Positions 7,204 through 43,922 of a stretch of DNA of 43,922 nt are shown here, piece by piece. Positions within the stretch are counted from its first letter, which is position 1. Each line of letters opens with the position of its first letter. Below the pieces are notes generated by a model that had not been told where the DNA came from, searched no databases, and worked only from the letters and a program-made list of their open reading frames with translations. The translations under genes were made by a program, and so were the position numbers. Origin of the DNA: a virus (lineage: Duplodnaviria; Heunggongvirae; Uroviricota; Caudoviricetes); IMG/VR virus record IMGVR_UViG_3300045988_002593, positions 1-43,922 of that record, one strand, 5' to 3'.

Positions 7204-7230
7204 AAGGCCCCATTAAGGGGCCTTAGTTTT
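7204..7230. terminator. Bidirectional intrinsic terminator
   Basis: AAGGCCCC/GGGGCCTT stem with ATTAA loop, T-run on + and A-run upstream; sits between convergent genes. Confidence 0.65.
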
Positions 7231-7433
7231 CAACGGAATCTTGTGTTTAAATCCTGCTCGTGGACGACCTTCAGAACAGTGTCATAATCCCCGTATCTTC
7301 CAGGTTCAAATACATCTAATGCCTTGTAAGCAGACATTGCGTCAGGGAAAACCTGCAGAACCTTTTTAACACGGCACAAGTCACCGTCGAACTCTTCATC
7401 GAACTCTTGAACTACTTCGCAAATTGCATACAT
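7230..7433 (-). CDS. Hypothetical acidic protein
   Basis: ORF track; RBS AGGAGG upstream of the start on the minus strand. Confidence 0.55.
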   Translation of the reverse strand: MYAICEVVQEFDEEFDGDLCRVKKVLQVFPDAMSAYKALDVFEPGRYGDYDTVLKVVHEQDLNTRFR

Positions 7434-7460
7434 TTTTCACCTCCTGCTTAAGTTAACTGA

Positions 7461-7489
7461 ATAGTACCCTATTATATTGGGGTGTGCAA
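7461..7489 (-). promoter_or_regulatory. Promoter, TTGCAC-17-TACTATTCA class
   Basis: Minus-strand -35 TTGCAC (7484-7489), 17-bp spacer containing TATAAT, -10 TACTAT (7461-7466); drives 7230-7433. Confidence 0.5.
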
Positions 7490-7555
7490 ACTATTTATTT
7501 ACTTATTCCAGTTATTCCGCTCAATTGTAAATGTTGTAATAAACTATTCGAATAG

Positions 7556-7584
7556 TTGACTTTTCACTAAAAATATGATAAGCT
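7556..7584 (+). promoter_or_regulatory. Promoter with extended -10 (TTGACT-17-TAAGCT) preceding conserved element A
   Basis: -35 TTGACT, TG at -15/-14, -10 TAAGCT; identical architecture at 39399-39427; -35 overlaps the 14-bp palindrome ACTATTCGAATAGT (7543-7556). Confidence 0.45.
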
Positions 7585-7590
7585 CCACCT

Positions 7591-7791
7591 GAGCTTGTGA
7601 AGTATGAACAAGCGACCGCGGCGCGGGCAGGTAACGGAGCGGGACGTAAGTCCTGAGTGTAGTTACGCTGACGCGTTCGGAAGGGCCATACTCTATTGCT
7701 TGTGTAAAAAGTAACAGGTTTACTTAGATTACGCCGTTTCTATGTTTAAATGATAAGGACTAGCGCCCTGCTTTAAGGCAGGGCTTTACTT
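7591..7791 (+). ncRNA. Candidate structured leader/ncRNA, copy A (conserved core about 7591-7698)
   Basis: About 118 nt conserved with 39424-39541; compensatory stem GGAC-GUAA-GUCC here versus GUGC-GUCA-GCAC in copy B; ends at an intrinsic terminator. Confidence 0.3.
7765..7791 (+). terminator. Intrinsic terminator between element A and the spanin genes
   Basis: GCCCTGC/GCAGGGC stem, TTTAAG loop, then TTTACTT. Confidence 0.5.
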
Positions 7792-7808
7792 ATCGAGAAA
7801 GGGGAAAC

Positions 7809-8195
7809 ATGAATCTTAAAGCAACCGTCGTAGCAGGAGCATGTTTCATCATCCTGGCTTACACACACGGCATTTATCAGTACCGCAGCGGCTGGCACGA
7901 AGGCCGCGCTAATCTCGTTTCGCAGCAACAGCAGAAAGCACAGGCCGAGTTAGCGAAGAAAACACAACGGCAGCAGCAAGATGAATCAAAGGCCGCCGCC
8001 GCTGACAACGAAGGCAAGACGAAATCAGAGGTGATCACCCGTGAAGTCGTTAAGTACATTAAAACTCCTGGTCGCAGCGTGTGCACTTTCGACCCTGAGC
8101 GCGTGCAGCTCAAGTCCCGCGCCGTCGCAAACGCCAATTCCATCCCCGGATACGACGATGATGCAGCCGCCGTGCAAGCTGGCACCGCCGAGTAG
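7809..8195 (+). CDS. Putative i-spanin (Rz-like)
   Basis: N-terminal TM helix, Q/A/K-rich coiled coil, periplasmic C-terminus; an overlapping lipoprotein ORF lies in another frame. Confidence 0.55.
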   Translation: MNLKATVVAGACFIILAYTHGIYQYRSGWHEGRANLVSQQQQKAQAELAKKTQRQQQDESKAAAADNEGKTKSEVITREVVKYIKTPGRSVCTFDPERVQLKSRAVANANSIPGYDDDAAAVQAGTAE

Positions 8196-10155: not shown

Positions 10156-10184
10156 GAGAGGGACTTCGGTCCCTCTTTTCATTT
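10156..10184 (+). terminator. Intrinsic terminator after the capsid gene
   Basis: GAGAGGGAC/GTCCCTCTT stem with TTCG tetraloop, then a T-tract. Confidence 0.65.
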
Positions 10185-16985: not shown

Positions 16986-17027
16986 AACATAACTCCTGAT
17001 TTGAGATAACATCGTTGGTGTAAGTGA

Positions 17028-17056
17028 ATAGTACGCTATTATATCAGGGTGTGCAA
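17028..17056 (-). promoter_or_regulatory. Promoter, TTGCAC-17-TACTATTCA class, for the minus-strand cassette
   Basis: Minus-strand -35 TTGCAC (17051-17056), 17-bp spacer containing TATAAT, -10 TACTAT (17028-17033). Confidence 0.5.
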
Positions 17057-17163
17057 GTAGTATGTTAGAATAATTTTGCGCCTAGTGTCGCACACGAAAA
17101 GCGGGTGGTTCCCGTCTGGCGCATTTCCTTTAACCAGTAACCTCTTAACCAAAGGATTAAAGA

Positions 17164-38899: not shown

Positions 38900-39112
38900 T
38901 TACTTAACGCCCGCAATCCACGCACGCTCCGAAGCGTAGAAACGACACTTACTTAAAGCCTCGATTGGCATCTTAATAATGCGTGTCGGTTCCAACAAAT
39001 GATTAGGCTTACATATTTCCGCATAGAATCCGCTGTCAGTAATTTCCGACGCAAACTTAAACCAGTATTTAACTTTACAGTTTTCAAAGTAACAACCCAT
39101 ACGCCCAATCAT
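38900..39112 (-). CDS. Hypothetical protein
   Basis: ORF track; start overlaps the AlpA-like gene stop. Confidence 0.45.
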   Translation of the reverse strand: MIGRMGCYFENCKVKYWFKFASEITDSGFYAEICKPNHLLEPTRIIKMPIEALSKCRFYASERAWIAGVK

Positions 39113-39291
39113 TTCACGTTCTCCTTAATCCATGCTTCAACTTTATTACGGTCAAATGTTCCTGGTAAACGGCGACCCATAACCTTAATACAGCAATCAG
39201 GGAATTTACCACTGCGCAACCAGTTATTAATTGTTTGACGTGTCACCCCGATACGTTCAGCCACTTCATTCTGTGTCATGTAATGCTGCAT
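39109..39291 (-). CDS. AlpA/excisionase-like HTH DNA-binding protein
   Basis: Motif MTQNEVAERIGVTRQTINNWLRSGKFP; start moved to ATG 39291 with an AGGAG RBS. Confidence 0.6.
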   Translation of the reverse strand: MQHYMTQNEVAERIGVTRQTINNWLRSGKFPDCCIKVMGRRLPGTFDRNKVEAWIKENVK

Positions 39292-39322
39292 TTTTATATC
39301 TCCTGTTTGTTTGGTGAAAACG

Positions 39323-39398: not shown

Positions 39399-39427
39399 TT
39401 GACTTTTACTAAGAAATGTGCTAAGCT
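39399..39427 (+). promoter_or_regulatory. Promoter with extended -10 (TTGACT-17-TAAGCT) preceding conserved element B
   Basis: Same architecture as 7556-7584: -35 TTGACT, TG at -15/-14, -10 TAAGCT. Confidence 0.45.
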
Positions 39428-39433
39428 CCACCT

Positions 39434-39665
39434 GAGCTTGTGAAGTATGAACAAGCGACCGCGGTGCGGCAGGAAACGGAGCGGTGCGTCAGCACTGAGT
39501 GTAGTGTCGCTGCCTGCATTCGGAAGGGCCATAATCTATTGTAAATCCCGTCTAAATAACCCAAGTCACTAATAATTAAAAGTTTCTATAGTTGCCGTAA
39601 GCAAGGTAGAGAGTACTTCACTCCGCTGGGGTGGGCTAAAGCCCACCCGCTGCGTTGCGTACTCT
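39434..39665 (+). ncRNA. Candidate structured leader/ncRNA, copy B (conserved core about 39434-39541)
   Basis: Conserved with 7581-7698; compensatory stem GUGC-GUCA-GCAC; divergent 3' part ends in an 8-bp GC-rich hairpin (39629-39648). Confidence 0.3.
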
Positions 39666-39707
39666 TTAAAGAAACAAAAGAATCACAACGGCAACGTAAC
39701 TATTATC

Positions 39708-39736
39708 TTGCACACCCCAACATAATAGGATACTAT
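39708..39736 (+). promoter_or_regulatory. Promoter, TTGCAC-17-TACTATTCA class, for the second early operon
   Basis: -35 TTGCAC, 17-bp spacer containing CATAAT, -10 TACTAT, 34 nt upstream of the ATG at 39771. Confidence 0.5.
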
Positions 39737-39770
39737 TCACTTATCGGAACGAGACATAAGGAATTTAGAA

Positions 39771-39974
39771 ATGAACAAAGCGACCGCAATCAAAGAAGTT
39801 TACGGCATCGATATCTCTGAGCGCGTAATTATCGGGAACAAGCGCAACTTCTTTACGTTCGACACCGACGGAATGGATGAAAATGATTTTGTTAACGTAC
39901 AACGTTTCGCTAACGGTAAAGGACTTCGTAACGAGCCAGCGGGTTACAAGAAATTTGCTATCTACTTTAAATAA
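39771..39974 (+). CDS. Hypothetical early protein
   Basis: ORF with RBS AAGGAA; its first 17 nt (ATGAACAAAGCGACCGC) closely match a segment inside both conserved elements. Confidence 0.55.
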   Translation: MNKATAIKEVYGIDISERVIIGNKRNFFTFDTDGMDENDFVNVQRFANGKGLRNEPAGYKKFAIYFK

Positions 39975-43780: not shown

Positions 43781-43812
43781 ATCCCGGCCCTGACCCAGCC
43801 GGGATTTTTTTT
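43781..43812 (+). terminator. Strong intrinsic terminator after the lysis cassette
   Basis: ATCCCGGC/GCCGGGAT stem with 9-nt loop followed by eight T; the T-tract runs into the terminal overlap. Confidence 0.7.
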
Positions 43813-43922
43813 ATCTATTTTCTGTGATGACTAGTTGACTATTATCCTCGACCCTATTATATTTACTTCATCGACAACGAGAACGGAGTAGAGAGAAATG
43901 GGCAACGTATCGACGATAGAAA
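43804..43922. repeat. Terminal overlap copy, identical to 1-119
   Basis: Exact repeat of window bases 1-119. Confidence 0.9.

Follow-up and report, generated by a model that had tools for sequence, protein, structure and literature searches.

Background

Promoter-proximal leader RNAs are a known kind of phage element. In the lambdoid phage HK022, for example, putL and putR are two diverged copies located just after the promoters of long operons (PMC9378689). The nut sites of phage lambda, which act with the N protein, likewise occur as two copies in two operons, with a conserved boxB hairpin at both sites. In two further systems, lambda PR'-6S RNA-tR' with Q and Pseudomonas aeruginosa PalpB-tB with AlpA, a strong promoter is followed by a leader of about 200 nucleotides (nt) and an intrinsic terminator, and the lysis and morphogenesis genes beyond the terminator are reachable by readthrough only. 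Here we analyzed a stretch of viral DNA of 43,922 nt (IMG/VR virus record IMGVR_UViG_3300045988_002593; hereafter the window), in which a 108-nt RNA element directly behind a promoter is present in two copies. In the lambda Q and AlpA systems a DNA-binding protein and a sigma-dependent pause are used and the leader RNA has no conserved fold, whereas the element described here is a conserved, covarying RNA whose family is absent from RNA databases.

The window is a complete genome of a Kagunavirus (Guernseyvirinae), a virulent siphophage of Escherichia coli. Bases 1-119 were identical to bases 43804-43922, indicating a complete circular or circularly permuted genome of 43,803 bp, and a 501-nt query (7400-7900) was 99.6% identical to Escherichia phage vB_EcoS-phiEc3. 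Among the phages of E. coli and Salmonella, Guernseyvirinae (including Kagunavirus and Jerseyvirus) are common in therapy and as models, and to our knowledge their transcriptional programme is essentially unmapped. The published Kagunavirus RNA-seq data (PMC12645636) are at gene level only and contain nothing on this region.

Two copies of the element and their promoters

An earlier note on this DNA, made from its letters alone, had proposed that a promoter-proximal stretch is duplicated in the window. Copy A (7556-7698) and copy B (39399-39541) indeed aligned from the -35 hexamer onward, and the likeness stopped after CTATTG (7698 and 39541, respectively). The copies had an identical run of 43 bases (7579-7621 and 39422-39464) and an identical 15-mer, TTCGGAAGGGCCATA, in the 3' block (7676-7690 and 39519-39533). 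Their middle parts differed by substitutions and two 1-nt indels of opposite sign, as the note had also described. A 23-mer from the 5' part, the 15-mer and the promoter pattern occurred exactly twice each in the window compared to 0.00-0.08 expected, thus ruling out chance. No third copy was found in the window by string counts, promoter pattern or covariance model.

Both promoters have the sigma-70-type form TTGACT-17-TGnTAAGCT on the plus strand. P_A (7556-7584) consists of the -35 hexamer TTGACT (7556-7561), the extended -10 motif TG (7575-7576) and the -10 hexamer TAAGCT (7579-7584), and P_B (39399-39427) of the same motifs at 39399-39404, 39418-39419 and 39422-39427. The two promoters, which had been called identical, were the same in hexamers and TG but differed in their 17-nt spacers. 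Transcription from P_A is predicted to start at about 7591, so that the RNA element would extend over 7591-7698 in copy A and 39434-39541 in copy B (type B1), both on the plus strand.

A conserved RNA fold supported by covariation

Relatives were gathered from IMG/VR and metagenomes by scanning for the 5' 23-mer and for the promoter pattern, the latter of which places no constraint on the RNA sequence. This yielded 99 promoter-plus-element instances with 42 distinct RNA sequences of about ten types. RNAalifold on a plain MAFFT alignment and the minimum free energy (MFE) fold of every one of the ten types gave the same architecture. P1 (7593-7613 in copy A, 39436-39456 in copy B) is a hairpin starting 2 nt from the inferred 5' end, followed by a GA linker. 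P2 (7616-7680 and 39459-39523) is a long, irregular stem with bulges, in which the 3' side of the internal loop, GAGUG, was unvarying. P3 (7640-7655 and 39482-39497) is an apical hairpin on P2, and its sequence was wholly different from type to type. The conserved tail GGAAGGGCC...CUAUUG holds a tentative 4-bp P4 (7682-7694 in copy A), which is weak, with one covarying pair only and 14 unpaired cells.

In the unfitted MAFFT alignment 94.7% of the cells were paired, compared to 29-41% when the partners were slid; 50 cells were changed on both sides, and none of 500 shuffles reached the covariation score. A covariance model constructed from this alignment, which scored copy B at 115.5 bits, detected Jerseyvirus homologues of the Ent1 type with 35-42 bits (E values of about 1e-7 to 1e-5), and these homologues sit upstream of the spanin gene. 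With Kagunavirus and Jerseyvirus taken together (47 distinct sequences), 95.7% of the cells were paired compared to 28-40% with slid partners, and the covariation score was 0.327 compared to 0.108 in shuffles, none of 500 reaching 0.327. This second alignment was fitted to the model and leans toward the structure, and the independent lineages in it number about ten rather than 47. Compensatory changes on both sides were found in 16 of its 29 pairs, so that the covariation in relatives supported the structured RNA that the earlier note had proposed. P1, for instance, is formed by ACGCU/AGCGU in Jerseyvirus in place of GCUUGU/ACAAGC.

The fold was assigned to the plus strand because G·U pairs were conserved and because the MFE was -39.9 kcal/mol on this strand versus -26.7 kcal/mol on the minus strand. 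The plus strand is also the one that the promoter of the element would transcribe. We conclude that Guernseyvirinae phages carry a new family of structured RNA, well supported as such, to which only putative functions can be assigned.

The P3 change between the copies that had been noticed previously, from GGAC-GUAA-GUCC in copy A to GUGC-GUCA-GCAC in copy B, was confirmed, and other B copies carried CACG-UGUAG-CGUG or GUGCC-AUUA-GGCAC. The apical loop of copy A is of the GNRA type (GUAA), which is a likeness to lambda nut. However, nut has a conserved boxB at both sites, whereas P3 is the most variable part of the element and is unlike between copies of one genome, and it therefore cannot be a shared recognition hairpin.

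Two other pairings were considered. A pseudoknot between the P1 loop AGUAUG (7601-7606) and CAUACU (7687-7692) would have six perfect pairs in copy A, but it was ruled out since position 7691 was C, G, A or U with the loop unchanged, and since types B6 and A2 had loops without a matching tail. A local hairpin, CCGC-GGC-GCGG (CCGYG-N-CRCGG; 7616-7626), competes with lower P2. It was kept in L023 by a C to U and G to A double change and dominated the Jerseyvirus MFE fold, while the long-range pairing of lower P2 was supported by three pair types at one position (C-G, U-A and A-U). The local hairpin might be an alternative conformation, possibly a switch.

Evidence against a coding sequence in the element

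A small basic protein (MNKRPRR...) of 36 or 41 amino acids (aa) could be read from the ATG at 7604 or 39447. It is annotated as a hypothetical protein in the GenBank records of Bas71, SHAK7858 and others, and the two indels bring the frame back at the 3' end in this window. However, the ATG was absent in 12 of 74 distinct genomic contexts, and the other contexts encoded products of 9-48 aa that were unrelated after about residue 7. The Jerseyvirus homologues contained no counterpart of the open reading frame (ORF), no Shine-Dalgarno sequence was evident in front of it, and the ATG lies inside the P1 loop. The non-coding nature proposed in the earlier note was thus in agreement with the relatives, in many of which the 36-codon ORF loses its ATG or its frame. 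A peptide product is extremely unlikely, and several GenBank records mis-annotate the element as a 36-aa protein. No transfer RNA or transfer-messenger RNA gene was found in the window by ARAGORN.

Distribution and exchange among phages

Copy A was 95-100% identical in about 181 records of Escherichia, Salmonella, Shigella and Raoultella phages, always before the spanin gene, and the element is the most conserved non-coding feature found before the lysis and capsid operon of Guernseyvirinae. A second place was occupied in at most about 43 of 183 records (at most about 24%), indicating that copy B is optional, and the exact copy B of this window was present in two records only. The second copies were of at least six diverged types with a highly variable P3. 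In contrast to the spacer sequence, which varied, the promoter hexamers and TG were unvarying in all 99 instances.

In the phages without the element at the B site, K1H and Ent3, the promoter was replaced too. K1H (L135, 34815-35285) carried a near-consensus TTGACA-16-TAAAAT promoter with an unrelated non-coding leader, and Ent3 (L195, 37424-38000) a likewise near-consensus TTGACA-17-TAAGTT promoter with an unrelated leader ending in a terminator-like hairpin; in both, homology picked up again before the shared downstream hairpin and promoter. The B site is thus a hotspot for the exchange of promoter-leader cassettes. On a metagenomic Kagunavirus contig (L040, 2220-2328) a B2-type core was located at the A (spanin) site, an arrangement that appears to indicate recombination between copies and functional interchangeability. 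Since promoter and element were always found together, were replaced jointly and were rearranged in this contig, promoter plus leader can be regarded as an exchangeable cassette.

Cornellvirus and Serratia relatives had other structured leaders at the A position, with only CAUUCGG, CGGAAGGG and GUCUAUU in common with the element, and the covariance model of the element detected none of them. Taken together, at least three GC-rich structured leaders other than the element were observed upstream of the spanin gene in other Guernseyvirinae, none matching Rfam: the Cornellvirus types C1 (L178, L181-L183, L186 and L188) and C2 (L138, L179, L185 and L193) and Serratia-like leaders (L139, L189, L191 and L194). 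The C2 leader is closed by UUGACC/GGUCAA, has three hairpins, two of them with GUAA loops, and ends in AGUCUAUUC. These leaders may be analogous RNA classes. Copies of host or prophage origin were also searched for, with no match in 5,426 E. coli genomes.

Operons behind the two copies

The gene map was taken from the annotation of SHAK7858, a close relative with both copies. Both copies sit in divergent intergenic regions, the leftward genes starting at 7433 and at about 39293. Copy B is at the head of a rightward block of small genes of unknown function, holins, endolysin, terminase, portal and head-morphogenesis genes; owing to the terminal 119-base identity, this operon continues into the terminase and portal genes at the start of the window. 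It ends at a terminator-like hairpin (7204-7224) facing a convergent gene. The terminator scan listed this hairpin on the minus strand, but its stem is palindromic and in our reading it would work in both directions. Copy A is at the head of the next rightward block, with Rz-like spanins, scaffold, major head protein, neck and minor tail genes.

The A leader continues from the element into an A+T-rich spacer (7699-7764, plus strand) that was as conserved as the element itself. Its most conserved stretch, 7731-7770, lies just 5' of the intrinsic terminator t_A and reads GCCGTTTCTATGTTTAAATGATAAGGACTAGCGCC. t_A (7765-7791, plus strand) has a GCCCTGC/GCAGGGC stem followed by TTTACTTATC and ends 18 nt before the ATG (7809) of the next gene, an Rz-like spanin gene by annotation in close relatives. 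Its stem covaried across phages, being GCCCCGC/GCGGGGC in relatives, and t_A probably terminates transcription. The minor-allele fraction was 0.02-0.04 over about 7511-7830, covering promoter, element, spacer and terminator, compared to 0.07 in the spanin gene. Neither a sigma-70-like site nor the repeated phage promoter motif was detected between t_A and the capsid gene. Since the upstream operon is closed and the region behind t_A has no detected promoter, the head operon must be transcribed from P_A through t_A. A further terminator was found by the scan after the capsid gene of the A operon (10156-10177), and the Shemara annotation also has one.

Behind copy B, the order is A+T-rich spacer, long hairpin, promoter-like site and first rightward gene (ATG at 39771). 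The hairpin (39610-39668, plus strand) is GC-rich, with the apex GGGTGGGCT/AGCCCACCC at 39629-39648, and is not a canonical terminator because it has no T-run. A terminator after each copy, as the earlier note had it, was therefore recovered by the scan for copy A (7765-7784 plus TTTACTTATC) but not for copy B. The promoter-like site, TTGCAC-17-TACTAT, is located at 39708-39736 on the plus strand. With no canonical terminator and a separate downstream promoter-like site, copy B is compatible with a small stand-alone RNA no less than with a leader. GTTTCTAT, part of which (TGATAAGGA) is similar to TGATAAGCT of the promoter, was found at 7739-7746 in the A spacer and again at 39583-39590, some 20 nt 5' of the long hairpin.

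Comparison with put and other leaders

The earlier note had likened the element to put. The analogy of placement held, with hairpins just 3' of the promoters of terminator-bearing operons, whereas a resemblance to put in sequence or structure was not found. The element shares with HK022 put the presence of two diverged copies per genome near a promoter for the host RNA polymerase that heads a long terminator-containing operon (PMC9378689), as well as adjacent hairpins separated by 1-2 unpaired bases and irregular stems with bulges and non-canonical pairs (PMC9378689). The first of the three neighboring hairpins begins 2 nt past the inferred +1, and terminators follow in the A operon at 7765-7791 and 10156-10177, which is a likeness of placement and not homology. 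In contrast to put, which has about 70-74 nt and two hairpins and belongs to a lambdoid phage, the element has 108 nt and three hairpins, belongs to a virulent Guernseyvirinae siphophage and has an optional second copy, and any antitermination by it is proposed by analogy. Membership in the put family was rejected, as covariance model R1 found nothing in the whole HK022 genome at E<=10 and the HK022 put arms (GGTYMAGGATGA...CAATG.TGC) had no resemblance to the element.

Even at permissive thresholds (E<=1-10), neither of the two copies nor any of the Jerseyvirus, Cornellvirus and Serratia leaders matched a family of Rfam 15. The families searched include EAR and other cis-regulatory leaders, which are likewise structured 5' leaders of about 100 nt. 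For boxA (GCUCUUUA-like, one mismatch), 17 matches were found in the window compared to 19 expected, and none was near copy A; one match, at 39660, is part of the long hairpin stem behind copy B. Among the 12 proteins scanned against PHROGs and/or Pfam, which were not all genes of the window, no Q- or AlpA-like antiterminator was found. The only regulator-like match was a 61-aa HTH_17 protein (AlpA/Xis-like; 39109-39294, minus strand) encoded divergently from P_B, and the first proteins of the B operon belonged to PHROGs of unknown function.

Possible function of the element

We tentatively favor a cis-acting leader that lets RNA polymerase from its own promoter pass t_A and later terminators, a plausible reading although short of a probable one, which is based on the placement of the element and the need for readthrough. 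The RNA would start at about +1 and fold during its synthesis into three close hairpins, P1, P2-P3 and P4. It would then act in cis on the transcription complex, or the transcript, begun at its own promoter, and polymerase from P_A would read through t_A and then through later terminators such as that after the capsid gene, allowing expression of the spanin, scaffold, major-capsid and neck/tail operon. For the operon of small genes, holin, endolysin, terminase and portal, this role would fall to copy B. The action might be processive antitermination or anti-pausing, by RNA alone as in put or with a phage or host factor as in nut, and the whole antitermination step is proposed by analogy with these systems. 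What defines put is readthrough of terminators in cis, independent of other factors and relying on the beta' zinc-binding domain. A stricter form of the proposal seems rather unlikely, namely that the element is a processive antiterminator made of RNA only and forms a second class without structural relation to put. In that case the nascent leader would bind the RNA polymerase of E. coli or Salmonella and render it terminator-resistant, promoter and leader would form a swappable cassette present once or twice per genome in virulent Guernseyvirinae, and the non-homologous Cornellvirus and Serratia leaders would be further classes.

Several observations weigh against a readthrough leader. Beyond the non-canonical hairpin behind copy B lies a separate promoter-like site, which makes readthrough from P_B dispensable. 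The Jerseyvirus hairpin preceding the spanin gene has a poor U-tract, and Serratia phage Tsm2 was found to have no hairpin at this position, so that the terminator may be weak and polymerase may pass it without a special device. The thermodynamic z-scores, -2.0 (copy A) and -0.9 (copy B), were modest and are weak evidence alone. The element did not resemble put, boxA matches did not exceed chance, and neither a Q-like nor an N-like protein was recognized among those scanned. Moreover, spacer and terminator of the A leader were as conserved as the element, which fits a discrete RNA product of about 200 nt.

This last point leads to the main rival, stand-alone small RNA genes, an explanation that is possible but less than likely, in which the products would extend from P_A to t_A (about 200 nt) and from P_B to the 39610-39668 hairpin (about 230 nt). 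In trans, such RNAs would either sequester a protein, as a decoy or sponge, or regulate by base pairing, with the 108-nt fold as functional or stabilizing domain. Each copy has a strong promoter and, within 70-90 nt, a GC-rich hairpin; the entire A leader, including spacer and terminator, is conserved; and at the B site the separate promoter-like site lies 3' of the hairpin. K1H and Ent3 also have a strong promoter and a short non-coding stretch there, that of Ent3 ending in a terminator-like hairpin. However, the head operon has no detected promoter behind t_A, and readthrough must therefore occur at copy A. A and B have only the structured 5' 108 nt in common and are unlike in the spacers, in which a seed would be expected. 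Neither a target nor a binding motif was identified, and the 5,426 E. coli genomes contained no homologue. A passive leader, which would leave RNA polymerase unmodified, is unlikely. P1 and the compact GC-rich fold would in this case shield the long late mRNA from 5'-end-dependent decay and deny Rho loading on the 218-nt untranslated leader. The leader is indeed long and untranslated, P1 at the extreme 5' end is kept in K-type and J-type despite different sequences, and other genera have non-homologous structured leaders at the same place. A generic stabilizer, however, requires neither unvarying unpaired nucleotides (GA linker, GAGUG, GGAAGGGCC and CUAUUG) nor near-identity across Escherichia and Salmonella phages.

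It is also improbable that the locus is primarily a DNA-level loading site for a Q/AlpA-type antiterminator near the promoter, with the RNA fold secondary. The protein would engage RNA polymerase paused at a -10-like sequence and carry it through t_A. Lambda PR'-tR' and P. aeruginosa PalpB-tB (PMC9371919) have the same order of promoter, short leader, terminator and lysis and morphogenesis genes, and a small HTH_17 gene diverges from P_B. The initially transcribed GAGCTT (+1 to +6, from the inferred start site) fits NANNNT, with A2 and T6 only of the -10-like pattern, and Jerseyvirus has the exact -10 repeat TACGCT-N3-TACGCT. However, NANNNT alone is expected by chance, and a DNA site with a pause signal needs about 30 bp and not a 108-nt RNA with 16 covarying pairs. 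Furthermore, no Q-like family was found among the proteins scanned, and the HTH protein, with 61 aa, seems too small for an AlpA-like ring at the RNA exit channel. Finally, A+T-rich spacers follow both copies and copy B lies in a divergent region adjoining replication genes, as might be expected of a transcription-primed replication origin with a promoter, a GC-rich structured RNA and an A+T-rich stretch, like the primary origin of T7. The near-universal copy is A, amid structural genes, while copy B is optional; nothing else points to an origin, and we consider this explanation highly improbable.

Should the element modify RNA polymerase, it would join HK022 put as only the second class of RNA-only antiterminators, and it would offer synthetic biology a compact part. 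In the case of an abundant small RNA, the host would be the target of a new RNA encoded by the phage. On either reading, the element offers a defined and readily testable entry point to the control of late genes in a virulent phage that relies on the host RNA polymerase alone.

Repeats and promoter motifs near the element

A perfect 16-bp palindrome, AACTATTCGAATAGTT (7542-7557), with the arms AACTATTC/GAATAGTT (100% complementary, 0 nt between the arms), abuts the -35 hexamer of P_A and is centered at about -41.5. It was found at copy A only and not at copy B, and is probably an operator candidate for a phage regulator. Direct TTATTCC repeats were observed upstream of it at about 7504-7520. 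Equivalent repeats and palindromes were present upstream of the -35 hexamer of the spanin-operon promoter in Jerseyvirus and Cornellvirus, and from this shared layout initiation at P_A is probably also under the control of a DNA-binding protein. The -10 region and transcript start of P_A form an inverted repeat, AAGCTC-N5-GAGCTT (7579-7596), instead of which Jerseyvirus (L163-L175, about 1760-1790) has the direct -10 repeat mentioned above. These repeats might be bound by a protein or serve as a sigma-dependent pause signal.

The promoter-like site behind copy B belongs to a repeated motif, CCCCAAYATAATAGGRTACTATTC (TTGCAC-17-TACTAT), which occurred at 7459-7482 (minus strand), 17026-17049 (minus strand) and 39715-39738 (plus strand). 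It corresponds to the repeated phage promoter consensus obtained with PHIRE for fBC-Eco01 (PMC9825357), and its copy at 7459-7482 diverges from P_A. The copy at 17026-17049 is directly adjoined by the sole Rfam match in the window, an int-alpA RNA at 17075-17139 (plus strand) with 36.6 bits compared to a gathering score of 35.8.
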